Positions 36,490 to 51,515 of a stretch of DNA of 64,000 bases are shown piece by piece. Origin of the DNA: Pseudomonadota bacterium. Lineage in GTDB: Bacteria; Pseudomonadota; Gammaproteobacteria; Burkholderiales; JABEVD01. Position 1 is the first letter of the stretch. Each line of letters opens with the position of its first letter. The translations under genes and the position numbers were made by a program. The notes under the pieces are model-generated. The model saw nothing but the letters and a program-made list of their open reading frames with translations, was not told where the DNA came from and did no database searches. The stretch lies in NCBI GenBank assembly GCA_021848825.1, contig JAJZTQ010000008.1, forward strand, positions 14,999 through 78,998. The letters run 5' to 3'.

Positions 36490-37472
36490 ATAGGACGGTC
36501 AAGACCCTGATCCTCGCCCTGCTTGTTTCGCTCTTTCTCCACCTGTTGCTGCTCGGCGCCCTGCCGAAAATGACATTCCCAGATTTCACCGGGAACACCG
36601 CATCGATCCAGGCCGAAATCGTCATCCCTAAGAAACCCGTGGCATTCAAGCCGCTGGTCCCGCCGAAGCCGAAAAGAAAAAGCGTTCCTGAGCCGGTCAT
36701 TCAGCCGGAGCCCGAAAAAAAGGCGATAGCCGCAAGCGAACCCCAAGCCGCAAGCGAACCCCAACCTGCAAGCGAGCCTGTAGTCGCTGCTGGCGAACCC
36801 GTTCCCTCGACAAGAAAGGGCACTGAAGTGCCATCCCATGCGAAGCTGACATTCAGGATTTTCAGGGGAAATGCCAATGTCGGCATGGGGACACAGACAT
36901 GGGACATCATGGACGACGGAAGATACGTGATCACGAGCAAGGTCGAGGCGATCGGCATCTTCTCGCTTTTCGTCAAGGGGTCGCTGACCCAGGTGAGCGA
37001 AGGGCATGTCACCGAAGAAGGACTGAGGCCGGACCTTTACACGATCACGAGAGGCAGCATGCAGAACCAGCAATCCGCCTATTTCGACTGGAAAAAGATG
37101 AAGCTGGACCTGGTATCGAACGGCGTCCTCACCAGGGAGGTGGATCTCTTTCCCATGACCCAGGACCAGCTCTCCTTCCTCTACCAGTTCGCCTATACGC
37201 CGCCGAAATCAGGCATTTTCAGCTTCCATGCGACAGACGGAAGGAAGCTCGACATCTACGACTACCAGATCATGGGCGAGGAAACGCTGACGACAGGCAT
37301 GAGGAAATACCGCACGCTCCACCTCGTGAAGCTTCACCAGGAGGGCGTGGAGGGGACGGAAATCTGGCTCGACATGGGCCATTACTACTGGCCCGTGCAG
37401 GTCGTGATCACCGACAAGAACGGCGATTCGGTGAAACAGATCATCACCAGCATCGAGGAGGATCAGGGATAA
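36486..37472 (+). CDS. DUF3108-like exported protein
   Basis: N-terminal TM/signal (LILALLVSLFLHLLLLGALP), a Pro/Glu-rich linker, then a beta-rich domain. Confidence 0.6.
   Translation: MNRTVKTLILALLVSLFLHLLLLGALPKMTFPDFTGNTASIQAEIVIPKKPVAFKPLVPPKPKRKSVPEPVIQPEPEKKAIAASEPQAASEPQPASEPVVAAGEPVPSTRKGTEVPSHAKLTFRIFRGNANVGMGTQTWDIMDDGRYVITSKVEAIGIFSLFVKGSLTQVSEGHVTEEGLRPDLYTITRGSMQNQQSAYFDWKKMKLDLVSNGVLTREVDLFPMTQDQLSFLYQFAYTPPKSGIFSFHATDGRKLDIYDYQIMGEETLTTGMRKYRTLHLVKLHQEGVEGTEIWLDMGHYYWPVQVVITDKNGDSVKQIITSIEEDQG
36729..36782 (+). repeat. Tandem 18-bp coding repeat (two identical units GCCGCAAGCGAACCCCAA plus one diverged unit)
   Basis: Read directly; encodes AASEPQ-AASEPQ-PASEPV in the linker of the DUF3108-like protein. 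Confidence 0.85.
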
Positions 37473-39575: not shown

Positions 39576-39623
39576 CGCACTGATTGGGTGCTGCAAGTGA
39601 GCCGCCTACACCGATTTGGTGCA
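39576..39623. promoter_or_regulatory. Two candidate NtrC-type enhancer sites (CGCACTGATTGGGTGCT; TACACCGATTTGGTGCA)
   Basis: Compared by eye with the consensus TGCACC-N5-GGTGCA. Centres are 31 bp apart, and the sites lie 65-110 bp upstream of the sigma54-like element. Confidence 0.45.
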
Positions 39624-39686: not shown

Positions 39687-39702
39687 TGGCATGAACATTG
39701 CT
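39687..39702 (+). promoter_or_regulatory. Candidate sigma54 (-24/-12) promoter TGGCATGAACATTGCT upstream of nasT
   Basis: GG and GC are spaced as in TGGCAC-N5-TTGCW; 32 nt upstream of the nasT ATG. Confidence 0.55.
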
Positions 39703-39733: not shown

Positions 39734-40309
39734 ATGTTGCGAGTAATGCTGATCGACGAGGACGAGGAAAGACGCGCCCTCCTGAACGGCGCGCTGCTCG
39801 AGAACGGCTATGAAATCGTGTCTGAAGATTCAGGCACGCAAAATCTTCACGACCTCGTGAAGAAAGCTTGTCCGGACGTGATCATCGTCGGAACGGACTC
39901 GCCCAGCCGGGACAGCCTGGAAGACATCTGCTTGCTGAGCCGCGATGCGCCTCGCCCCATCGTGATGTTCACGCATGACGGGGATCGGGAAAAGATCCGG
40001 GAAGCGATCAGGTCCGGCGTATCGGCCTATGTCGTCGACGGATTGAAAGGCGATCGCATCAGATCCCTTGTCGACGTGGCAATCGCCCGCTTCGAAGCGC
40101 ACCAGGCGCTGATGAACGAGCTCGATGCGATGCAGGGCAAGCTGGCTGACCGCAAGGTCGTCGAGCGCGCCAAGGGCATTCTGATGCAGAAGAAGAATTG
40201 CAGCGAGGAAGAGGCTTACCGGATCCTGCGCAAAGCGGCCATGGACAAGAACATGAAGCTTGTCGAAGTGGCGGCGCAATTGATCGACATGGCCAATCTT
40301 TTTACTTAG
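39734..40309 (+). CDS. nasT: ANTAR-domain response-regulator-like antiterminator NasT
   Basis: REC-like N-terminus (MLIDEDE...) and a C-terminal ANTAR domain (KVVERAKGILMQKKNCSEEEAYRILRKAAMDKNMKL). Confidence 0.85.
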   Translation: MLRVMLIDEDEERRALLNGALLENGYEIVSEDSGTQNLHDLVKKACPDVIIVGTDSPSRDSLEDICLLSRDAPRPIVMFTHDGDREKIREAIRSGVSAYVVDGLKGDRIRSLVDVAIARFEAHQALMNELDAMQGKLADRKVVERAKGILMQKKNCSEEEAYRILRKAAMDKNMKLVEVAAQLIDMANLFT

Positions 40310-40368: not shown

Positions 40369-40403
40369 ATCTGGATGATTTCATCCGGATGGCGCTTTTT
40401 TTT
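40364..40403 (+). terminator. Intrinsic terminator (14-bp stem with one G-U, then T8) between nasT and the porin gene
   Basis: GCGCCATCTGGATG/CATCCGGATGGCGC followed by TTTTTTTT. Confidence 0.8.
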
Positions 40404-40427: not shown

Positions 40428-41669
40428 ATGAAAAAAATTTGGCCAGGACTCTTTCTTCTCGCATCTTGCCAGGCGAGCGCCGATTCGCTGTCAGACATGA
40501 TAGCAGCCGGCAAGGCGGATCTGCAGCTTCGCCCTCGCTACGAATTCGTGCAGCAGGACGGCAAGCCGAACAATGCCAATGCCTATACCCTGCGCACGCT
40601 GCTGGGCTACAGCCTGAAACCTGAAGCGGGGTTCGGCGGAACGATCCAGTTCATCAACGTCAGCGCCCTGGGGGCCGAGCATTTCAACAGCACCCTGAAC
40701 GGCCACACTGCCTATCCTGTCGTGGCCGACCCTGGTGTGAGCGCCGTCAATCAGGCATTCCTGAGCTACGGGGGAATGCCCCGGACGAACCTGAAGCTCG
40801 GCAGGCAGATCATCATCCTCGACAATTCGAGATGGATAGGCAATGTCGATTTCCGCCAGAACATGCAGACGTTCGATGCCTTCAGTATCGAAAACAGCAG
40901 CCTGAAGAACACGAAGTTTTTCGTTTCGCGAATCGCCCGGGTCAAGGGAAGCTACGCCAATTTCCAGAGCCCCGTCGGATACAACCTGCAGCATGTGAAG
41001 GCAGACATCCTCCATGCGTCCTTTACGCCCTTCAAACAGACGACCTTGACGGCCTATGAATATTTCTACCAGGACGAAAGCTTCCCTCAGGGCTCGCCTT
41101 CGAATATTTCAAGCGCAACGCCCGGCCTGCGCGTCGATGGCTCGATAGGCGAGGGGCTCAGGATTCTCTATACCGCAGAATACGCGAAGCAGCGAGGCTA
41201 CGCAGGGGGCCACTCCGGGATGGATGCCAGATACGAGCTGATCGGGGGAGGGGCCGCCTATGGAAAACTCTACGCGCGTCTGGACTACGAAACGCTGGGT
41301 TCCAATTCGACCGGCACATACGGATTGCAGACCCCGCTCGCCACGAAGCATATCTTCAACGGCTGGGCGGACATGTTTCTCATGACGCCTGGAAAGGGCT
41401 TGAAGGACCTGTTCGCGACCCTGGGCGGAAAAGCGGGGCCATTGGACATGGTCGCCATGGTTCACGACTACAGGGCCGACTTCGATTCGACGCACTATGG
41501 ATCGGAATGGGATCTTTCGGCTTCCCATGCCTTCACCAGCCACCTTTCGGGAAGCCTCATCTATGCCGACTACAGGGCAAAGGACGGCGCGGGAGCCTTT
41601 TTTCCAGGCACCGCGGCGCCGAATGTGAACACCAAGAAAATGTGGCTTACCCTTTTGTACCGCTACTGA
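40428..41669 (+). CDS. Outer-membrane beta-barrel porin (alginate-export/AlgE-like family by eye)
   Basis: Signal peptide, alternating amphipathic beta pattern and C-terminal ...LLYRY. Confidence 0.65.
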   Translation: MKKIWPGLFLLASCQASADSLSDMIAAGKADLQLRPRYEFVQQDGKPNNANAYTLRTLLGYSLKPEAGFGGTIQFINVSALGAEHFNSTLNGHTAYPVVADPGVSAVNQAFLSYGGMPRTNLKLGRQIIILDNSRWIGNVDFRQNMQTFDAFSIENSSLKNTKFFVSRIARVKGSYANFQSPVGYNLQHVKADILHASFTPFKQTTLTAYEYFYQDESFPQGSPSNISSATPGLRVDGSIGEGLRILYTAEYAKQRGYAGGHSGMDARYELIGGGAAYGKLYARLDYETLGSNSTGTYGLQTPLATKHIFNGWADMFLMTPGKGLKDLFATLGGKAGPLDMVAMVHDYRADFDSTHYGSEWDLSASHAFTSHLSGSLIYADYRAKDGAGAFFPGTAAPNVNTKKMWLTLLYRY

Positions 41670-41715: not shown

Positions 41716-42975
41716 GTGGAGATGAGCGGAGAAGCCGATTCCGGGCGGCGTGATTTCTTCAGGCAGGGGGCAGCATTGCTTGGCGGGGCCGCGCTCTTTG
41801 GAATCATGCCCGCTGGAGCGCGCAGTTCAGCCTATGCTGCAGGTTCCGATGCGCCTGAAATGCAGGAAGTGAAAATAGGCTTCCTGCCTTTGACGGACTG
41901 CGCATCCGTGGTCATCGCCTCCGAAATGGGCTTCGACAGGAAATACGGCATCAGGATCATCCCGAAAAGGGAAGCTTCCTGGGCTACCGTGAGAGACAAA
42001 CTCGCAAGCGGCGAACTGCAGGCATCTCAAGCGCTTTACAGCATGGTTTACGGCATCCATCTCGGCGTGGGCGGGGAGAAGACGGACATGGCCGTGCTGA
42101 TGACCCTCAACAACAACGGCCAGGACATCGTGCTGTCAAGCAGGCTCAAGGAAAAAGGCGTGAGAAGCGGAGAAGCGCTCAAGCGCCTGGTGTCCATGGA
42201 GAAGCCCCATTCCGTCTTCGCCCAGACCTTCCCTACCGGAACGCATGCGATGTGGCTTTATTACTGGATGGCCGCGCATGGCATCGATCCGCTCAGGGAC
42301 GTCAACACCATCACCGTTCCCCCGCCCCTAATGGTTTCGGCCATGCAATCGGGAAACATGGACGGATTCTGCGCCGGCGAGCCATGGGGACCGATCGCCA
42401 TCCGGGAAGGGATCGGTTTCGCCGCCGCTTCTTCCCAGCAGATCTGGAAGGATCATCCGGAAAAGGTGCTGAGCGCGACACGGGATTTCGTGGACAGCCA
42501 CCCGAACACGGCCCGTGCGATGATCATGGCCATACTCGAGGCCTCCAGCTTCATCGATCACCCGGCAAACAGGCCGACGGTGGCCAATATCATCGCCGGA
42601 AAAAACTATGTCGACGCCCCGGTCGGGATCCTGGAAGGCCGCATGCAGGGCATCTACGATAACGGCCTGGGAAAGACATGGCAGGATCCGCATCACATGA
42701 AGTTTCACGGGGACGGGGAGGTCAATTTCCCTTACCTCTCCGACGGCATCTGGTTCATGACCCAGCTGCGGCGCTGGGGTCTCCTCAGGGAAGATCCGGA
42801 TTATGATGCAGTGGCCCGAACGATCAACAGGACTGAACTCTACACGGAAGCCGCGGCAGGGGCGAAGGTTTCCGTCCCCGCCGAACCCATGCGCTCCTCG
42901 ACGCTGATGGACGGCAGAACCTGGAACGGCAAGGACCCGAAAGCCTATGCCGACAGTTTCGAAATAAGGGCCTGA
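41716..42975 (+). CDS. NrtA/CmpA/NasS-family nitrate-binding protein with twin-arginine signal peptide
   Basis: AGGAGG SD. SGRRDFFRQGAALLGGAALFG Tat motif with an AYA cleavage site, then KIGFLPLTDCASVVIA, typical of the NrtA fold. Confidence 0.8.
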   Translation: MEMSGEADSGRRDFFRQGAALLGGAALFGIMPAGARSSAYAAGSDAPEMQEVKIGFLPLTDCASVVIASEMGFDRKYGIRIIPKREASWATVRDKLASGELQASQALYSMVYGIHLGVGGEKTDMAVLMTLNNNGQDIVLSSRLKEKGVRSGEALKRLVSMEKPHSVFAQTFPTGTHAMWLYYWMAAHGIDPLRDVNTITVPPPLMVSAMQSGNMDGFCAGEPWGPIAIREGIGFAAASSQQIWKDHPEKVLSATRDFVDSHPNTARAMIMAILEASSFIDHPANRPTVANIIAGKNYVDAPVGILEGRMQGIYDNGLGKTWQDPHHMKFHGDGEVNFPYLSDGIWFMTQLRRWGLLREDPDYDAVARTINRTELYTEAAAGAKVSVPAEPMRSSTLMDGRTWNGKDPKAYADSFEIRA

Positions 42976-42993: not shown

Positions 42994-43010
42994 GGCACCG
43001 TCATGGTGCA
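42994..43010. promoter_or_regulatory. Candidate NtrC-type enhancer site GGCACCGTCATGGTGCA
   Basis: Near-perfect match by eye to TGCACC-N5-GGTGCA; ~60 bp upstream of a sigma54-like element. Confidence 0.5.
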
Positions 43011-43063
43011 CGGCAATTTCCTGGTCAAGACATGGCCTGATTATCATTCAAGAAGTTACAGTC

Positions 43064-43079
43064 AGGCACGGATGTTGCT
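43064..43079 (+). promoter_or_regulatory. Candidate sigma54 promoter AGGCACGGATGTTGCT upstream of the narK leader
   Basis: GGCAC-N6-TTGC with canonical GG/GC spacing. The predicted start is ~10 nt before leader hairpin 1. Confidence 0.6.
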
Positions 43080-43100
43080 TTTCCAGCATTGACAATTCAG

Positions 43101-43144
43101 GGTTTCCCAAAGGCGGGGAGCCGTTTCTCAGGACAAAGGCGTCC
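43101..43144 (+). promoter_or_regulatory. ANTAR-target-like leader 2: GGTTTCCC[AAAGGC]GGGGAGCC and GGAC[AAAGGC]GTCC
   Basis: Two hexaloops with A1/G4. Hairpin 2 shares 43138-43144 with the terminator stem. Confidence 0.7.
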
Positions 43145-43181
43145 ATGGCTGATATTTCAGCCATGGACGCCTTTTTGTTTT
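43138..43181 (+). terminator. Intrinsic terminator (15-bp perfect stem, 4-nt loop, TTTTTGTTTT) 16 nt upstream of narK
   Basis: GGCGTCCATGGCTGA-TATT-TCAGCCATGGACGCC read directly. Confidence 0.85.
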
Positions 43182-43196
43182 CGAAAGGAAAAGGAA

Positions 43197-44408
43197 ATGA
43201 AAACGAGCTTCTGGAAGGCCGGGCATGCGCCCACGCTGTTTGCTGCGTTTCTCTATTTCGACGTCAGCTTCATGGTCTGGGTGATACTGGGTCCGCTCGG
43301 CGTCCAGATCGCTTCGTCATTGGGACTGAATGCGGCCCAGAAAGGCATGATGGTCGCCACCCCCGTCCTCGCCGGCGCGCTTCTCAGGATCGTGATGGGC
43401 ATGCTGGTCGACCATCTGAAGCCGAAGCTGGCCGGCATCGTCGGCCAGCTTGCCGTGATGCTTGCACTCGTCCTGGCCTGGCTCTTCGGCATCCATGATT
43501 ACAGCCAGGTGCTGATACTGGGCGCGTTCCTCGGCTTTGCCGGCGCCTCCTTCGCAGTGGCATTGCCGCTCGCTTCCCGCTGGTATCCTCCCGAGCACCA
43601 GGGCACTGCGCTGGGCATTGCCGGGGCGGGCAATTCGGGAACCGTTCTGGCTGCCCTTTTCGCACCCACCCTTGCGCTCTGGTATGGCTGGAACAACGTC
43701 CTGGGATTCGCCCTGATTCCGCTTTTCATCGCCTTCATGGTCTATGTTTTCGTGGCGAAGGACAGCCCTGAATGCCCTCCCCCCAAGACGCTTGTCGAAT
43801 ATGCCCGGGTATTGAAGGACAGGGATGCATGGTGGTTCATGTTCTTCTACAGCGTGACTTTCGGCGGCTTCGTCGGACTCGCCTCTTCACTCTCGATCTA
43901 TTTTCATGACCAGTACGGGCTTTCCGCAGTCAAGGCGGGCTTCTACACGGCCGCCTGCGTATTTGCAGGGTCTCTCGTCCGTCCCATGGGCGGCGCGCTG
44001 GCGGACAGGATAGGGGGCGTGCGCACCCTTTCCTTCATGTACGTGATTGCCTCGATCAGCCTCTTCGTCATGAGCTCCGGTCTTTCCGATGTCAACGCCA
44101 CGCTGGCCGTGTGCGTCTTGGCCATGCTTTCTCTGGGCATGGGCAACGGCGCGATTTTCCAGCTCGTTCCCCAGCGCTTCAGGAAGGAAATCGGGGTGAT
44201 GACGGGGCTCGTCGGCATGGCGGGCGGAATCGGCGGATTCTATCTCGCATCGAGCCTCGGCTACTTCAAGGCGCATACGGGCGACTACAAAATCGGCCTG
44301 ATGATCTTCGCCGGCATGGCCGTCCTGGCGCTGACCGGATTGAGCAGCGTGAAGAAGAGATGGAGAACCACATGGGGCGCACTGAATCTCAGCGCGGCGA
44401 AGATCTGA
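43197..44408 (+). CDS. narK: MFS nitrate/nitrite transporter (NarK/NasA type)
   Basis: 12-TM MFS with nitrate-signature-like Gly-rich motifs (GFAGASFAV, GIAGAGNSG, GMAGGIGG). ATG 43197 follows GGAAAAGGAA. Confidence 0.9.
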   Translation: MKTSFWKAGHAPTLFAAFLYFDVSFMVWVILGPLGVQIASSLGLNAAQKGMMVATPVLAGALLRIVMGMLVDHLKPKLAGIVGQLAVMLALVLAWLFGIHDYSQVLILGAFLGFAGASFAVALPLASRWYPPEHQGTALGIAGAGNSGTVLAALFAPTLALWYGWNNVLGFALIPLFIAFMVYVFVAKDSPECPPPKTLVEYARVLKDRDAWWFMFFYSVTFGGFVGLASSLSIYFHDQYGLSAVKAGFYTAACVFAGSLVRPMGGALADRIGGVRTLSFMYVIASISLFVMSSGLSDVNATLAVCVLAMLSLGMGNGAIFQLVPQRFRKEIGVMTGLVGMAGGIGGFYLASSLGYFKAHTGDYKIGLMIFAGMAVLALTGLSSVKKRWRTTWGALNLSAAKI

Positions 44409-46075
44409 TGGATTTCCTGAGCATCTCGCACGGCGCTTCAAGCGACAGGGGTCGGCGCGACCGCAACGAAGACTTCTTCGGCGCGGTGACCCCCGAAGAC
44501 CGCCTGCTCGACACCCGCGGCATCCTGGTGGCCATCGCTGACGGCGTGAGCGGCAATACGGGCGGGAGGGAAGCAGCTGAATACACGGTGAGAAGCGTGC
44601 TGAGCGACTATTATGCGACGCCCGAGACATGGGGAATCCCGAATTCCCTGGACAAGCTTCTCTCGGCCGCCAATCGCTGGCTGCTCGCCCAGAAGGGGAG
44701 TCTCACCGGCATGGCGAGCACGGTGAGCCTGCTCGTCCTGAAAGGGGATCGCTATACCATCGCCCATGTCGGGGATACCCGGATCTACCTCAGGCGCGGC
44801 GAAAGCCTGACACTCCTCACCACGGACCATGTCTGGGAAGGCCCGGAACTGCGCCATGTGTTGAAAAGAGCCGTGGGCCTGGATCAGCACCTGACGGTCG
44901 ATTACAGCGAAGGGCAATTGAGGGAAAAGGATGTCTTCCTGCTCGTCACGGACGGCGTGTGGGAGCGTCTCGGACAGAAGAGGATGCACGAGATCCTCAA
45001 CCTTCACGAAAATCCCGAAAGAAGCGCAAAAGTGCTCGTCGAACAGGCCCTGGCTTCGGGCGGACAGGACAACGCGACCGCCCAGGTGGTGAAGATAGAA
45101 AGCCTGGGACGGGGCATGCTTCTCGAAGGCCGGGATCTCCCGCTTCCGCCCAGGTTGAAAGTCGGGCAGAAACTGGACGGATACGAGATCCTGGAAATCA
45201 TGCACGATTCCCGGGAAACGATCCTCTACAAGGTCAGGGAAGAATCGAGCCGCAAGCATTTCGTGCTGAAAACGCTGCAGCCATCGATGCAGCAGGACGA
45301 GAAGGCCTGCAGCAGCCTGCTCACGGAGGAATGGCTGGGCAAGCGCATCCAGTCCCATTATTTCCCGCAAGTCGTCCCAGCCTCTTCCGGAAAACGCACT
45401 GCGCTCTATTACGTGATGACCTGGCATGACGGCGCGACGCTTGCCGCACATATCGAAAGCGGAAGGCATTTCCCCGTCGTCGAGGCCAGACAGATCGGCA
45501 TCAGGCTGGCCAAGGGACTGGCCGCCCTGCACCGGCTCAACATCATCCATCGCGACATCAAGCCCGACAATATCCTGCTCGGAGAAGACGGAAAACTGCG
45601 CATCCTCGATCTGGGCGTGGCCCTGAATCCCGCCCTGAACGCCGAAGAAAACGATGCCAATCCGGGGACGCCGAGCTACATGGCGCCGGAGCGCATCAAG
45701 GGGGAAGAGGCGACCTTCGGCAGCGATCTCTACAGTGTCGGCGTCACGCTCTATCATCTGCTGACAAGGAAATATCCGTACGGCGAAATCGAGCCTTTCC
45801 AGCATCCCAGATTCCCGGATCCTGTTCCGCCCACGCGCTATCGCCCGGACATCCCGGGATGGTTCGAAGCCATCATCCTCAAGGCTGTGCAGAGAAACCC
45901 GTCGCATCGGTACGAATTTCCGGAAGCGCTTCTTCTCGATCTCGAACTTGGCGAGCAGCCTGCATTCCAGAGCCCGTCAAGCCCGAAAAGAAGCCGGCCT
46001 TCCGTCTGGCAGATTGCTGCCGTCCTGTCCGTCCTTTTGAACCTTTTCCTGCTCTACCTGGCTGGAATCGGCTGA
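44408..46075 (+). CDS. Fused PP2C-type Ser/Thr phosphatase / Hanks-type Ser/Thr kinase with C-terminal membrane anchor
   Basis: PP2C motifs RDRNEDFF, ADGVSG, TDGVWE, GGQDNAT. Kinase motifs VLKTL, HRDIKPDNILL, DLG, SYMAPE. C-terminal hydrophobic helix. The ATG overlaps the narK stop. Confidence 0.85.
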   Translation: MDFLSISHGASSDRGRRDRNEDFFGAVTPEDRLLDTRGILVAIADGVSGNTGGREAAEYTVRSVLSDYYATPETWGIPNSLDKLLSAANRWLLAQKGSLTGMASTVSLLVLKGDRYTIAHVGDTRIYLRRGESLTLLTTDHVWEGPELRHVLKRAVGLDQHLTVDYSEGQLREKDVFLLVTDGVWERLGQKRMHEILNLHENPERSAKVLVEQALASGGQDNATAQVVKIESLGRGMLLEGRDLPLPPRLKVGQKLDGYEILEIMHDSRETILYKVREESSRKHFVLKTLQPSMQQDEKACSSLLTEEWLGKRIQSHYFPQVVPASSGKRTALYYVMTWHDGATLAAHIESGRHFPVVEARQIGIRLAKGLAALHRLNIIHRDIKPDNILLGEDGKLRILDLGVALNPALNAEENDANPGTPSYMAPERIKGEEATFGSDLYSVGVTLYHLLTRKYPYGEIEPFQHPRFPDPVPPTRYRPDIPGWFEAIILKAVQRNPSHRYEFPEALLLDLELGEQPAFQSPSSPKRSRPSVWQIAAVLSVLLNLFLLYLAGIG

Positions 46076-46103
46076 ATTATCGAAACTTGTGAAGGAGATT
46101 GAA

Positions 46104-48536
46104 ATGCAGAAACTGAAGCTTGTGGTAGTGGGAAACGGCATGGCCGGCATGAAGGTCGTGGAAGAATTGTTGAAAATAGGGCCCGATCTCTACGAAATCA
46201 CGGTATTCGGCGCAGAGCCCTATCCCAATTACAACCGCATCATGCTCTCCCCGGTTCTCGCCGGGGAACAGAAATTCGAAGACATCATTCTCAACAGCCT
46301 GGGCTGGTACGAAGAAAACGGCATCAGGCTGCATCTGGGCAAGAAAGTCCTCAGAATAGACAGGCAAAGGCGGATTGTCGAAGCCGAAGAAGGCATGGAG
46401 GTGGAATACGACAGACTGCTGCTCGCCACCGGATCGAGCCCTTTCATCCTGCCGGTGCCGGGACGGGATCTCGATGGGGTGATCGCGTACCGCGACATCC
46501 AGGATACCGAAAAGATGATCGAGACGGCAGAGAAGCACCGGCATGCCGTGGTCATCGGCGGCGGACTGCTGGGGCTGGAAGCGGCGAACGGCCTCAGGCT
46601 CCGCGGCATGGACGTGACCGTGGTTCATCTCGCGTCATGGCTGATGGAGCGCCAGCTCGACAGGCATGCCGGCAAGATGCTTCAATGCGAACTCGAGAAG
46701 CGGGGATTGAAATTTCTGCTCGAGAAGAAAACCGAAGCGCTGCTCGGGAATGAAGGCCGGGTATGCGGGGTGCGCTTCTCCGACGGCGGGGAAATCCCGG
46801 CGGACCTGGTGGTGATGGCAGTCGGGATCAAGCCCAACACGCAGCTTGCGGAATCGGCAGGAATACATTGCAACAGGGGAATCGTGGTCGACGACACGAT
46901 GCAGACATTCGATCCGAAAATCTACGCAGTCGGGGAATGCGTCTCCCACAGAGGAACGAGCTATGGTCTGGTCGCGCCGCTCTTCGACATGGCAAAAGTC
47001 TGCGCGAACCATCTGGCGATGATGGGAATAGGAAGATATGCCGGATCGTTCACCGCGACGAAGCTCAAGGTGACGGGAATCGATCTCTTTTCTGCCGGAA
47101 AGTTCGAAGGCGACGAGCATTCCGAGGAGATCGTGCTGAACGACGTGGCGGGCGGGGTCTACAAGAAGATCACGATCCGCGACGGCAAGATCGTCGGCAC
47201 GGTGCTTTATGGCGATACCGTCGACGGACAATGGTATTTCAGGATGCTGAAGGAAGGGCAGGACATCGGCGAAATCAGGGGCAACCTGATGTTCGGCCAG
47301 AGTCATCTCGGCAACGCGGGACACGAGGGTCGCGTGCAGGCGTCCAGCATGACGGACGACATGGAAGTGTGCGGATGCAACGGCGTGTGCAAGGGCACGA
47401 TCACGAAAGCGATCAAGGAAAAGGGGCTTTTCACGCTCGAAGAGGTGAGAAAGCATACCAAGGCATCGAGCTCCTGCGGATCCTGCACCGGACTCGTCGA
47501 ACAGATTCTCGCATCCGAACTGGGAGGCGGCTATTCGCCGAAAACCAGCGCCGAAAAGCCGCTCTGTGCGTGCACCGAGCATACCCATGCCGACCTGCGC
47601 AAGGCCATCAGGGAAGAGAAGCTGCTCTCGATTCCGGAAGTGATGGCCTTCATGAACTGGAAGACGCAGAACGGCTGCTCGACCTGCCGTCCCGCGCTCA
47701 ATTATTATCTCATCTCGACCTGGCCTCACGAGGCGATGGACGACCCCCAGTCGCGCTTCGTCAACGAAAGGGTTCATGCCAACATCCAGAAGGACGGGAC
47801 TTTTTCGGTTGTGCCGAGGATGTACGGCGGGATCACCAATCCCGAACAGCTGCGCAGGATCGCGGATGTCGCCGACAAATACCGGGTGCCGATGGTCAAG
47901 GTGACGGGCGGGCAGCGAATCGACCTGCTCGGCGTCAGGCGGGAGGATCTGCCTGCAATATGGTCGGATCTCGACATGCCGTCGGGCTATGCCTACGGCA
48001 AGTCGATACGCACCGTGAAGACCTGCGTCGGCACCGAATTCTGCCGCTTCGGCACGCAGGATTCGACAGGCCTCGGCATCATGCTCGAGCAGGCATTCGA
48101 CAGGATGTGGGCGCCGCACAAGGTGAAGATGGCCGTATCGGGATGTCCGAGGAACTGCGCCGAATCCACCATCAAGGATGTCGGCATCATCGGGGTCGAA
48201 TCGGGCTGGGAAATCTATGTCGCGGGCAACGGCGGCATCAAGGCGGAGGTTTCGCAATTTCTCGCGAAGGTGAAGACGAAGGAGGAAGCCATGGAATATT
48301 CGGGCGCCTTCCTCCAGCTCTACCGGGAGGAAGCCTATTATCTGGAAAGGACAGTCCACTGGATCGGGCGGGTCGGACTCGACTACGCGAGATCGAGGGT
48401 GGCTGAAGATGAGGAAAACCGGCGCGCATTGTACCAGCGCCTGCTCTATGCGCTCTCCGGCGAGCGCGATCCCTGGAAGTCCGTTGTCGAAAGGGAAAGA
48501 AAGCCTCTTTTCGAATCGCTCATGGTGGAGGCATGA
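46104..48536 (+). CDS. nirB: Assimilatory nitrite reductase [NAD(P)H] large subunit
   Basis: VVVGNGMAG FAD motif, BFD-like CGCNGVC...CGSC, and the siroheme/[4Fe-4S] cysteines (CVGTEFC...SGCPRNC). AAGGAG SD before ATG 46104. Confidence 0.95.
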   Translation: MQKLKLVVVGNGMAGMKVVEELLKIGPDLYEITVFGAEPYPNYNRIMLSPVLAGEQKFEDIILNSLGWYEENGIRLHLGKKVLRIDRQRRIVEAEEGMEVEYDRLLLATGSSPFILPVPGRDLDGVIAYRDIQDTEKMIETAEKHRHAVVIGGGLLGLEAANGLRLRGMDVTVVHLASWLMERQLDRHAGKMLQCELEKRGLKFLLEKKTEALLGNEGRVCGVRFSDGGEIPADLVVMAVGIKPNTQLAESAGIHCNRGIVVDDTMQTFDPKIYAVGECVSHRGTSYGLVAPLFDMAKVCANHLAMMGIGRYAGSFTATKLKVTGIDLFSAGKFEGDEHSEEIVLNDVAGGVYKKITIRDGKIVGTVLYGDTVDGQWYFRMLKEGQDIGEIRGNLMFGQSHLGNAGHEGRVQASSMTDDMEVCGCNGVCKGTITKAIKEKGLFTLEEVRKHTKASSSCGSCTGLVEQILASELGGGYSPKTSAEKPLCACTEHTHADLRKAIREEKLLSIPEVMAFMNWKTQNGCSTCRPALNYYLISTWPHEAMDDPQSRFVNERVHANIQKDGTFSVVPRMYGGITNPEQLRRIADVADKYRVPMVKVTGGQRIDLLGVRREDLPAIWSDLDMPSGYAYGKSIRTVKTCVGTEFCRFGTQDSTGLGIMLEQAFDRMWAPHKVKMAVSGCPRNCAESTIKDVGIIGVESGWEIYVAGNGGIKAEVSQFLAKVKTKEEAMEYSGAFLQLYREEAYYLERTVHWIGRVGLDYARSRVAEDEENRRALYQRLLYALSGERDPWKSVVERERKPLFESLMVEA

Positions 48537-48841
48537 TGGAAAACTGGATCAAGGTATGCGAACTGGAAGACATCCCTCAGCTAGGCGCCAGGGTGGTCAA
48601 GGGAAAGTCGTGCGAAATCGCGCTCTTCAGGGAGGGCGACAGGATCTATGCGCTGCACGACAAGTGCCCTCACAAGGGCGGCCCGCTCTCGCAGGGAATC
48701 GTCAGCAAGGGTCGGGTCACCTGCCCCCTTCACGGCATGAACATCGGCCTGGAAGACGGACGGGCGATTTCTCCTGACGAAGGCTGCACCGAGACTTTTT
48801 CAGTCAGGATCGAAGAGGGCGCAGTCTATATTTCACTCTGA
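48533..48841 (+). CDS. nirD: Nitrite reductase small subunit (Rieske-like fold)
   Basis: 102 aa with CPHKGGPLSQG...CPLHG. ATGA overlap with nirB. Confidence 0.9.
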   Translation: MMENWIKVCELEDIPQLGARVVKGKSCEIALFREGDRIYALHDKCPHKGGPLSQGIVSKGRVTCPLHGMNIGLEDGRAISPDEGCTETFSVRIEEGAVYISL

Positions 48842-48851
48842 TCGGGAAGAA

Positions 48852-51515
48852 ATGGGAACAAGGACAGTTCGCTCGACCTGCTGCTATTGCGGCGTCGGCT
48901 GCGGCGTGATCATAGGCGCGCGGGAAGGCGTCATCGAATCGGTCAGGGGCGACCCCGACCATCCCGCCAATCACGGCAAGCTTTGCACCAAGGGCGCCAC
49001 GCTCCATCTGACCGCAGGCGGCCATGGCCGCCTGCTTCACCCTTCCCTTTCAGGGAAGAGAATCGGATGGAACGAAGCGCTCGACCATGCCGCAAGGCGC
49101 TTCGCCGAAACAATCGTGAAGCACGGGCCGGAAAGCGTGGCATTCTACATTTCCGGCCAGCTCCTCACCGAGGATTATTACGTCTTCAACAAGCTGGTCA
49201 AGGGCCTGATCGGCACCAACAACATCGACACCAATTCGAGGCTCTGCATGTCGTCAAGCGTGGCGGGGTACAAGGCGACCCTCGGCGCGGATGCGCCGCC
49301 AGCCTGTTACGAGGACATCGATCAGGCGCAATGCATCCTGATCGCCGGATCCAACACCGCGCTCGCCCACCCCGTTCTTTTCAGGCGCATCGAGGCAGCG
49401 AGGGAGAGAAACCCCGATCTGAAGGTCATCGTCATCGACCCCAGGAAAACCGACACCGCAAGAGCGGCAGACCTTCATCTGCCCATCCTTCCGGGGACGG
49501 ACGTCGCCCTCTTCAACGGCATGCTGCATGTGCTGCTCTGGGAAAACCTCATAGACAGGGATTACATCGATGCCCATACGGAAAATTTCGATCGCCTCAA
49601 ATCGATCGTGCACGAATATACGCCGCGTCATGTCGCCCGCCTTTGCGGCATCACTGAAGAAGATCTCGTCAGGGCATCGCTCTGGTTCGGCAATTCGCCA
49701 TCATCCCTCTCCCTCTATTGCCAGGGTCTCAACCAGTCCGTCCATGGCACGGACAAGAACGGCGCGCTGATCAATCTCCATCTCGCAACCGGAAAGATGG
49801 GAAAGCCTGGATCGGGACCCTTTTCCCTGACAGGTCAGCCCAATGCCATGGGCGGCAGGGAAGTGGGCGGGATGGCGAATCTCCTTTCGGGTCACAGGGA
49901 TCTCTCGGACCCTAAGCACAGGCAGGAGGTGGCCGATCTATGGGGAATCGATTCCGTTCCTGAAAAACCGGGAAAGACCGCAGTGGAGATGTTCGAAGCG
50001 CTGCAGGCAGGGGAAATCAGGGCGATCTGGATCGCCTGCACCAATCCCGCCCAGTCCATGCCCGATCTGGCGAAGATCCATGATGCGCTGGAAAAGGCGG
50101 ATTTCGTCGTCGTCCAGGATGCATTTCGCGACACCGAGACGGCGCGCCATGCCGATCTCCTTCTTCCCGCCTCGACCTGGGCCGAAAAGGAAGGCACCGT
50201 GACCAATTCGGAAAGAAGGATCACGCGGGTGAGGGCTGCGGTCCGTCCCCCTGGCGAGGCAAGGGCGGATTGGGAAATCGCGGCCGATTTTGCATTGAGG
50301 CTGGGGAAGCTGCTGGGGAAAAATGCCGGTCGCCTTTTCCCGTACAGGCATCCCGAGGAGATATTTCTCGAGCACAGGGAATCGACAAGGGGAAGGGATC
50401 TCGACATCACCGGGCTCGGTTACGCCATGCTCGAAGAGCAGGGTCCCCAGCAATGGCCTTGTCCGGAAGGCATGAAATCCGGGAAAAAGCGCCTTTACGA
50501 CGAAGGCATATTCCCGACTGCGACAGGACGGGCGAGATTCCACGCGGCCGAATACCAGGGTACCTCGGAAGAAACGGATGCCCGCTATCCTTTCCATCTC
50601 ACCACGGGCAGGCTGCGCGACCAGTGGCACGGCATGACGAGGACGGGCAGGACGGGGCGCCTCTTCAGCCACGATCCGGAAGCCAGTCTTTCCATGAATC
50701 CCGAAGACATGAAATCGAGACAGCTGATTTCGGGCGACATCGTCAGGGTGAAAAGCAGAAGGGGCGAGATGATCGTCTCTCTCAGGCCTGACCCCGACAT
50801 CAGGCAGGGGCAGGTCTATCTGCCGATGCACTGGGGCGGCCGTTATACAGGCGGATTCGGGGTGAACGGGCTCACCGTCGGGGATTTCGATCCCGTTTCC
50901 AAGCAGCCTGAACTCAAGCATGCAGCCGTGATGGTGGAGAAGGTCGAACTCGCCTGGACAGTCTCGGTGCTGAGAAGCGGCGACGCCCTGGAATTCATGG
51001 AAAGGGCTCAGCCCATTCTGAAGCATTTCGATTACGCGAGCGCCACGCTTTTCGGCAGGGAAGAGACGATATTCTCCTTGAAGGCCGGCTGCCTTGCCGC
51101 GCCGGATGCCGATCTCGTTCGCGAGATCGACCGGGTCTTCGATCTGGATGCGGAAGACTGCATGGTTTACCGCGACATCGGATCAGGGATCGACAAGCTG
51201 GTGAAGATCGAAGGGGGGCTCGCGGCAGGGGTCCGCTTCGTCGGCGAATCCGCGGCGCGTCAATGGCTGATGGAAGCGATGGCATCGCGTGCGGATGTTT
51301 CTCTCGTCCGCAGATGGCTGCTTGCGCCGATGTCCGCTCCTCCCACAGTCGAGATGCGGGGCAGGATCGTCTGCAACTGCCTGGACGTCTCAGAGAGCGA
51401 GATAGTCGGATCAGGCCTCGATCTCGCCGGGCTTCAGGCAAAATACAAATGCGGCACCCAATGCGGATCCTGCCTGCCCGAGATCAGGAAACTCCTGGAA
51501 TTGAACGGGCATTGA
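48852..51515 (+). CDS. nasC: Assimilatory nitrate reductase catalytic subunit (molybdopterin) with C-terminal BFD-like [2Fe-2S] domain
   Basis: N-terminal CCYCGVGC...C [4Fe-4S] motif, MopB domains and C-terminal CNC...CGTQCGSC. Confidence 0.9.
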   Translation: MGTRTVRSTCCYCGVGCGVIIGAREGVIESVRGDPDHPANHGKLCTKGATLHLTAGGHGRLLHPSLSGKRIGWNEALDHAARRFAETIVKHGPESVAFYISGQLLTEDYYVFNKLVKGLIGTNNIDTNSRLCMSSSVAGYKATLGADAPPACYEDIDQAQCILIAGSNTALAHPVLFRRIEAARERNPDLKVIVIDPRKTDTARAADLHLPILPGTDVALFNGMLHVLLWENLIDRDYIDAHTENFDRLKSIVHEYTPRHVARLCGITEEDLVRASLWFGNSPSSLSLYCQGLNQSVHGTDKNGALINLHLATGKMGKPGSGPFSLTGQPNAMGGREVGGMANLLSGHRDLSDPKHRQEVADLWGIDSVPEKPGKTAVEMFEALQAGEIRAIWIACTNPAQSMPDLAKIHDALEKADFVVVQDAFRDTETARHADLLLPASTWAEKEGTVTNSERRITRVRAAVRPPGEARADWEIAADFALRLGKLLGKNAGRLFPYRHPEEIFLEHRESTRGRDLDITGLGYAMLEEQGPQQWPCPEGMKSGKKRLYDEGIFPTATGRARFHAAEYQGTSEETDARYPFHLTTGRLRDQWHGMTRTGRTGRLFSHDPEASLSMNPEDMKSRQLISGDIVRVKSRRGEMIVSLRPDPDIRQGQVYLPMHWGGRYTGGFGVNGLTVGDFDPVSKQPELKHAAVMVEKVELAWTVSVLRSGDALEFMERAQPILKHFDYASATLFGREETIFSLKAGCLAAPDADLVREIDRVFDLDAEDCMVYRDIGSGIDKLVKIEGGLAAGVRFVGESAARQWLMEAMASRADVSLVRRWLLAPMSAPPTVEMRGRIVCNCLDVSESEIVGSGLDLAGLQAKYKCGTQCGSCLPEIRKLLELNGH

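Follow-up and report, generated by a model that had tools for sequence, protein, structure and literature searches.

Does the short piece of DNA that precedes narK in the nitrate-assimilation locus of an uncultured betaproteobacterium carry a nitrate-responsive switch, and of which kind? The first-pass annotation of the 64,000-nucleotide stretch analysed here (the window) had read positions 43101–43181 as an ANTAR-type RNA, that is, as a candidate target of the NasT protein encoded upstream. RNAs recognised by ANTAR domains obey a simple rule: two short hairpins are joined by a short linker, their hexaloops have A at position 1 and G at position 4 (A1/G4), and the second hairpin overlaps an intrinsic terminator (PMC3369931). 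An ANTAR dimer recognises the two A1/G4 hexaloops and stabilises the second hairpin, P2, against the terminator (PMC3369931, PMC8934654). We conclude that the element upstream of narK is very probably such a NasT/ANTAR attenuator, acting in cis, in which initiation by NtrC and sigma-54 would be combined with nitrate-dependent antitermination by NasT. As such, it is a new case of an established nitrate switch and not a new mechanism.

The anatomy of the leader was read directly from the sequence; the genes, promoters and RNA elements of the locus described below all lie on the + strand. Hairpin 1 (P1, 43101–43122) reads GGTTTCCC[AAAGGC]GGGGAGCC and has a stem of 8 bp including two G-U pairs, while hairpin 2 (P2, 43131–43144), GGAC[AAAGGC]GTCC, has a stem of 4 bp and represents a weak antiterminator element. 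The coordinates originally given for both hairpins are exact to the base; the linker between them measures 8 nt, and AAAGGC in each loop bears out the A1/G4 signature. Also present is the perfect 15-bp stem that had been described as overlapping P2 (43138–43152 pairing with 43157–43171), and AAA/UUU pairs lengthen it to 18 bp. The complete intrinsic terminator (43135–43174) contains 10 G-C pairs and a 4-nt loop, UAUU, and its G+C-rich stem is directly followed by the U-run of an intrinsic terminator, encoded by the tail TTTTTGTTTT (43172–43181, read directly). Its 5' arm, 43135–43152, takes in loop 2 and the 3' arm of P2.

The energies computed for the single elements are −13.5 kcal/mol for P1, −5.5 kcal/mol for P2 and −35.2 kcal/mol for the terminator. 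For a transcript prefix ending at 43146, the minimum-energy fold is exactly P1 plus P2, whereas for the full leader it is P1 plus terminator; P2 and the terminator are therefore mutually exclusive, as had been proposed. RNAfold assigns the region 43095–43185 a minimum free energy of −51.8 kcal/mol with z = −8.1 (200 shuffles). P2 is unable to compete with the terminator unless it is held by something, which is the ANTAR arrangement. Thus, tandem short hairpins, a short linker, A1/G4 hexaloops and a P2 overlapping the terminator are all found in the sequence.

Such an arrangement is rare by chance. A strict scan returned 2 sites in the window compared with 0.025 per window in dinucleotide shuffles; it called for two A..G.. 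hexaloop hairpins, the first with 6 bp or more, together with a T-run and an overlapping terminator at least as stable as −25 kcal/mol. With loose criteria, the figures were 2 and 0.54. Both sites are intergenic, belong to the nas cluster and lie on the coding strand. The narK ATG is found where the first-pass annotation had placed it, at 43197–43199 and 16 nt past the last T. With a gap of just 15 nt between T-run and ATG, there is no room for a promoter and all narK transcripts have to cross the terminator; its role is thus that of an attenuator and goes beyond ending an upstream unit.

The promoter from which these transcripts would start is recognisable as a sigma-54 (−24/−12) sequence, GGCACGGATGTTGCT, at 43065–43079, 22 nt upstream of P1, and we infer a transcription start near 43090. 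About 70 nt upstream of this promoter lies the palindrome GCACC-N5-GGTGC (GCACCGTCATGGTGC, 42995–43009), the sole perfect match in the window, which by its consensus is a putative NtrC-type enhancer. The pattern GGCAY-N5-TTGCW occurs only twice in the 64 kb, ahead of the narK leader (43065) and ahead of nasT (39688), where the sigma-54-type promoter GGCATGAACATTGCT (39688–39702) is preceded by NtrC-like half-matches (near-matches) at 39577 and 39608. Hence, NtrC-like palindromes stand 70–110 nt upstream of each of the two sigma-54-type promoters (39577–39622; 42995–43009), and the combination of TGGCAC-N5-TTGCW with an upstream palindrome is what a predicted sigma-54/NtrC-dependent promoter consists of.

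Gene identities were obtained from Pfam and NCBIfam searches, and gene starts were corrected by reading the sequence. The narK gene (43197–44408; TIGR00886, 298 bits), encoding an NNP-family MFS nitrate/nitrite transporter, is the first gene of the operon, and 80 of 80 homologs align with it from residue 1 or 2 at this ATG. It is followed by a gene for a PP2C phosphatase/Ser-Thr kinase fusion (44372–46075; Pfam PP2C_2 and Pkinase; called as a gene in the identical contig L087), by nirB (46089–48536; TIGR02374, 947 bits), by nirD (48533–48841; TIGR02378, 94 bits) and by the gene of the assimilatory nitrate reductase, nasC/nasA (48852–51515; NasC/NasA models, ~515 bits). The genes of the narK-nirBD-nasC operon suggested at the outset are hence confirmed by profile matches, but their immediate succession is not, since the PP2C/kinase gene stands between narK and nirB. 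The nas gene order of Pseudomonas likewise has a kinase gene between the transporter gene and nirB. In nearly all of 80 related loci the PP2C/Ser-Thr-kinase gene lies directly 3' of narK, often overlapping its 3' end. Upstream of the leader, nasT (39734–40309; PF03861, 82.5 bits with a cut-off of 27.3; PF00072, 34 bits) encodes a REC plus ANTAR protein; the distance of 2.8 kb agrees with the approximately 3 kb of the first-pass annotation. Between nasT and the leader lie a gene for a porin-like outer-membrane protein of the Alginate_exp family with a Sec signal peptide (40428–41669) and a gene for a nitrate-binding protein of the NrtA/NasS family (41722–42975; PF13379 (NMT1_2), 317 bits; NrtA 2g29, E = 4e-80). 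A megablast search of the locus against a plasmid collection gave no match.

Mechanically assigned open reading frames start at a TTG at 43089 and at an ATG at 40389 and thereby pass through leaders and terminators, the real starts being 43197 for narK and 40428 for the porin gene. Automatic annotation could thus bury both leaders of this locus in over-extended genes, as happened with a 420-residue NarK call in the related locus L083.

The 80 species-representative genomes in which a NarK homolog was found are without exception betaproteobacterial, and none of these homologs exceeds 77% identity. The window itself stems from a metagenome contig (L087), and closer relatives are known only as metagenomic contigs, with NarK identities of 94% and 89% and an NrtA identity of 85%. 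These contigs keep the NtrC site, the promoter, P1, P2, the terminator and the ribosome-binding site, while the intergenic DNA between them diverges; the promoter is conserved in L081–L083, and the NtrC palindrome is likewise kept in the orthologous leaders. Substitutions in P1 preserve pairing (G-U to G-C, U-G to U-A), and P2 is invariant. In the terminator of L082 a U-A pair has become G-C, the single true compensatory pair among the orthologs, and L081 shows one mismatch. The orthologous leaders, whose alignment the first-pass annotation had proposed as a test for compensatory changes, thus keep the structure and supply one such pair.

Leaders of the same design also occur in more distant relatives, upstream of nirB (L039, L067, L076, L069, L065, L050, L059, L026), upstream of narK (L041, L069, L065) and upstream of Tat-nrtA or porin genes (L032, L089, L091, L016). 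Linkage between nasT and leaders of this kind is seen not only in the window but also in L018, L020, L032, L041, L069, L089 and L091. In a set of 16 related leaders, pairing holds in 97% of cells for P1 and in 97.5% for P2, compared with 42–62% for P1 and at most 58% for P2 in slid-register controls; double changes are seen in five of six P1 pairs and three of four P2 pairs, and A1 and G4 are invariant. The pair counts stem from fixed-length hairpin alignments and register-checked seeds; whole-leader MAFFT alignments were not used for them, as these place P1 out of register. Since the 16 leaders were gathered by a scan that itself required hairpins, these covariation counts are partly circular. 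Free of this circularity are the orthologs, a leave-window-out covariance model (see below) and a promoter-anchored test, in which promoters were chosen by sequence alone and an A..G.. hexaloop hairpin of at least 4 bp was sought within 70 nt: such a hairpin follows 26 of 87 sigma-54-type promoters in nas loci, compared with 6.5 ± 2.3 in shuffles.

Variants of the design were observed as well. Four Methylobacillus leaders ahead of a nirB-like gene (L007 7337–7377, L016 7231–7272, L029 7238–7276 and L036 7136–7177) have a canonical P2, GGAC[AACGGC]GTCC, and a long terminator, and their first-hairpin loops of 5–8 nt lack the A1/G4 pattern. Upstream of Tat-nrtA in L018 (4723–4790) and L020 (7667–7735), a sigma-54 promoter is followed by a P1-type hairpin only, CTGTCC[AAYGGC]GGGCGG, with no recognisable P2 or terminator in either stretch; the protein-binding hairpin may serve here in another way that does not involve termination.

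A covariance-model search had been named by the first-pass annotation as a check. The model R2, built from eight distant leaders without any window sequence and searched with filters off, places its top match in the window at 43103–43146 (33.4 bits, E ~1e-6). It was built because the matches of a preceding model, R1, are true by construction in the window, both window leaders being among its seeds, and R1 was set aside. The second-best match of R2 (37375–37427, 18.9 bits) falls within a DUF3108 coding sequence, at its 3' end, has neither hexaloops nor a terminator and was judged a false positive, as was an R1 match within nirB (L034 663–711). In a permissive Rfam scan of the window, the two published families stayed below their gathering thresholds: RF03032 (narK RNA) matches 43065–43145 over the full length of the model (1–72) with 32.2 bits (gathering score 43.2; E = 0.007), and RF00625 (Pseudomonas sRNA P11) matches 43052–43171 with 30.1 bits (gathering score 70; E = 0.0025). 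A related leader upstream of nirB in L039 reaches 44.2 bits, above the RF03032 gathering score, and the window leader appears best called a diverged relative of the RF03032 narK RNA.

The alignments give this Rfam motif a mechanistic reading. In the models of both families, the conserved 5' block is the sigma-54 promoter and the 3' block is the P2/terminator core GGACAAAGGCGUCC. For RF03032, GGCAC...UUGCU is the sigma-54 promoter, and the match also spans a hairpin with the loop CCAAxGGCGG and the downstream ACGACAAAGNCGUC. Read together with the terminator that follows it, the RF03032 motif is a sigma-54 promoter with the first part of a NasT/ANTAR attenuator behind it, or two-thirds of the whole attenuator counted from the 5' end, whereas the Rfam model annotates a single hairpin as cis-regulatory with no mechanism, unlike the two hairpins and the terminator seen here. 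RF03032 is a comparative-genomics motif attributed to Weinberg et al. 2017; the main text of that paper does not mention narK.

Together, all sequence-level features of an ANTAR substrate, the proximity of nasT and the leave-window-out model support the reading of the leader as an ANTAR-type target, and the features suggest control at two layers. Under nitrogen limitation, NtrC bound at 42995–43009 would activate the sigma-54 promoter at 43065–43079, as judged from the consensus sites. The first ~55 nt of the transcript would then fold into P1 and the weak P2, each with its AAAGGC loop closed by a C-G pair. Were active NasT to clamp both loops, presumably in the form of an ANTAR dimer, P2 would be held and the terminator 5' arm (43135–43152) would become unavailable, so that RNA polymerase would read into narK, the PP2C/kinase gene, nirBD and nasC. 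When NasT is not bound, the 18-bp terminator, ~30 kcal/mol more stable than P2, would displace the latter, and transcription would end in the T-run, which lies 16 nt ahead of the narK ATG. NasT binding, antitermination and nitrate dependence are here transferred by analogy from NasR/nasF, NasT/NalA and EutV/eut.

Among the closest known systems is the Pseudomonas NalA/nirBD leader, with which the present leader shares the sigma-54/NtrC promoter, the two A1/G4 hexaloop hairpins, the overlapping Rho-independent terminator and a REC plus ANTAR NasT encoded nearby (PMC10783516). Pseudomonas nalA is transcribed from an NtrC/sigma-54 promoter (PMC12830290, PMC4253122). In P. putida, NasT-dependent read-through drops when A1 and G4 are mutated in one NalA loop, whichever of the two it is, and is lost when both loops are mutated (PMC10783516); because the experiments proposed by the first-pass annotation, loop mutants among them, have thus already been done on a homologous leader, the leader described here is not a new kind of target. 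The gene set is also that of the Pseudomonas nirBD system, and the P2/terminator core aligns with the P11 model. The present leader differs from that of Pseudomonas in that it precedes narK and heads one narK-kinase-nirBD-nasC operon. Its host is an uncultured betaproteobacterium, and no signal-less NasS adjoins nasT. With Klebsiella oxytoca NasR/nasF and Enterococcus faecalis EutV/eut the system has the RNA rule and the logic of P2 versus terminator in common (PMC3369931, PMC7496416, PMC8934654), yet it differs in the input domain, NasR having a NIT domain joined to ANTAR and EutV a receiver that is phosphorylated, as well as in regulons and leader sequences. For the nitrate-assimilation locus studied here, the analysis yields a confident regulatory annotation that names the promoter, the leader, the terminator, the regulator and the extent of the operon.

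Could the same sequence be explained otherwise? The stem-loop and T-run might be the constitutive terminator of the nasT-porin-nrtA unit, with the two small hairpins being incidental. The position 160 nt past the nrtA stop codon and the great strength (−35 kcal/mol) would suit this, and the second leader of the locus (see below) similarly comes right after the nasT stop. However, nrtA is separated from the terminator by a conserved sigma-54 promoter, narK would be left without another promoter given the 15 nt between T-run and ATG, and the A..G.. hairpins are not only conserved but found again in many relatives, equally far from a sigma-54 promoter, so that we hold this explanation to be highly improbable. 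We give just as little credence to the proposal that the terminated leader is mainly a stable trans-acting small RNA, the form in which P11 was first catalogued in Pseudomonas, and not a cis switch. The RF00625 match and the expected stability of a ~90-nt terminated product with a strong 3' hairpin speak in its favor; conservation, however, coincides precisely with the promoter, both protein-binding hairpins and the terminator, with no further conserved single-stranded seed, and P11 is the NalA leader of P. aeruginosa. The Pseudomonas NalA leader, in turn, acts in cis by antitermination (PMC10783516).

Somewhat less remote, though still improbable, is that the leader senses nitrate, nitrite or another metabolite independently of any protein, as a riboswitch or attenuator, or that it responds to an ANTAR protein other than NasT, such as a NasR-type NIT-ANTAR protein encoded elsewhere. 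Rfam describes the narK RNA as cis-regulatory only and assigns neither ligand nor protein, and the window shows no NasS that could partner NasT. Against a riboswitch stand the two hairpins of 4–8 bp, which offer no obvious ligand pocket, and loops that fit the ANTAR rule exactly (PMC3369931); against another ANTAR protein stands the linkage of nasT to such leaders in the window and in the seven related loci named above, and in the window nasT is the only ANTAR gene. The NasT/ANTAR attenuator hence accounts best for the narK leader.

A second leader of this type, overlooked in the first-pass annotation, is found in the locus itself, directly after the nasT stop codon and ahead of the porin/nrtA pair. 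It comprises a P1 (40309–40338, core TTCTCC[AAAGGG]GGGGAA), an extra hairpin between P1 and P2 (40340–40353), a P2 (40357–40368, GGC[AAAGGC]GCC), an 18-bp terminator overlapping P2 (40360–40399) and a T-run of T8 (40396–40403). It is conserved in L083–L085, where changes preserve the structure: an A/A mismatch in P1 is replaced by C-G and a U-G pair in the terminator by A-U. The low score of 14.2 bits that R2 gives it is probably due to its long structured linker. This leader is not preceded by any match to GGCAY-N5-TTGCW and therefore belongs to the nasT transcript, so that here, too, it would depend on NasT whether transcription continues from nasT into the genes for the porin and NrtA. Leaders in L089 and L091 contain a comparable inserted hairpin, and the one in L091 (7890–7910, CAGCC[AAAGAC]GGCTG) also carries an A..G.. 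hexaloop, giving three candidate ANTAR loops in that leader.

How nitrate would reach NasT is a separate matter. In canonical NasS-NasT systems, nitrate or nitrite releases NasT from NasS, a cytoplasmic protein that has no signal peptide, and NasT then binds the leader (PMC3795266). The NasT of the window fits the architecture of these systems, with an N-terminal receiver-like and a C-terminal ANTAR domain. Its best solved relatives, Rv1626 and EutV, align with it from end to end, and its ANTAR domain aligns with those of EutV (6wsh, E = 8e-22) and NasR (4akk, E = 2e-10). In the alignment to Rv1626 a Gly occupies the canonical phospho-Asp position, which suggests that NasT has a pseudo-receiver controlled by protein contact. 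Like Paracoccus denitrificans and Azotobacter vinelandii, the locus combines a REC plus ANTAR NasT with an NrtA-family gene beside nasT (PMC3795266). Unlike the NasS of these organisms, the NrtA-family protein carries a conserved twin-arginine (Tat) signal, SGRRDFFRQG...AYA/AG, and its gene heads an nrtABC operon in relatives: homologs at 63–65% identity have the same signal and are followed by the ABC-transporter genes nrtB and nrtC (L089, L091). Because of this conserved signal and these neighbors, the NMT1_2 protein at 41722–42975 is unlikely to be a cytoplasmic NasS and is probably a periplasmic NrtA, a feature likewise overlooked in the first-pass annotation. No nrtBC genes lie beside it here. 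The window contains no signal-less NasS, the Tat protein being its sole NMT1_2 member, and no ANTAR gene besides nasT; a literature search for a NasS with a Tat signal returned nothing relevant. A further contig, P0003, has the order nasT-nasS-narK without a porin gene.

Two putative NasT targets in one locus, with no cytoplasmic NasS in the window, are possibly an interesting loose end. One could speculate that NasT in this betaproteobacterial lineage works without a canonical cytoplasmic NasS and governs, in addition to narK-nirBD-nasC, an envelope module for nitrate capture, with nitrate input arriving by another route, a reading that we consider unlikely. It would involve an orphan, Tat-exported NrtA that has lost nrtBC and is co-transcribed with the porin gene behind a second NasT-dependent attenuator; porin and orphan periplasmic binding protein would possibly feed NarK, and the nitrate input would come, for example, through the conserved NarK-linked PP2C/Ser-Thr kinase.

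The porin deserves a final remark. An Alginate_exp-family porin recurs in betaproteobacterial nas clusters (L004, L007, L016, L029, L036, L091), and this nas-cluster porin may be a nitrate/nitrite-specific porin under NasT control. In Methylobacillus flagellatus (L016, 1441–1640) the porin gene has a sigma-54 promoter of its own, followed by a hexaloop P1, a linker of ~60 nt and GGAC[AAAGGC]GTCC overlapping a terminator.
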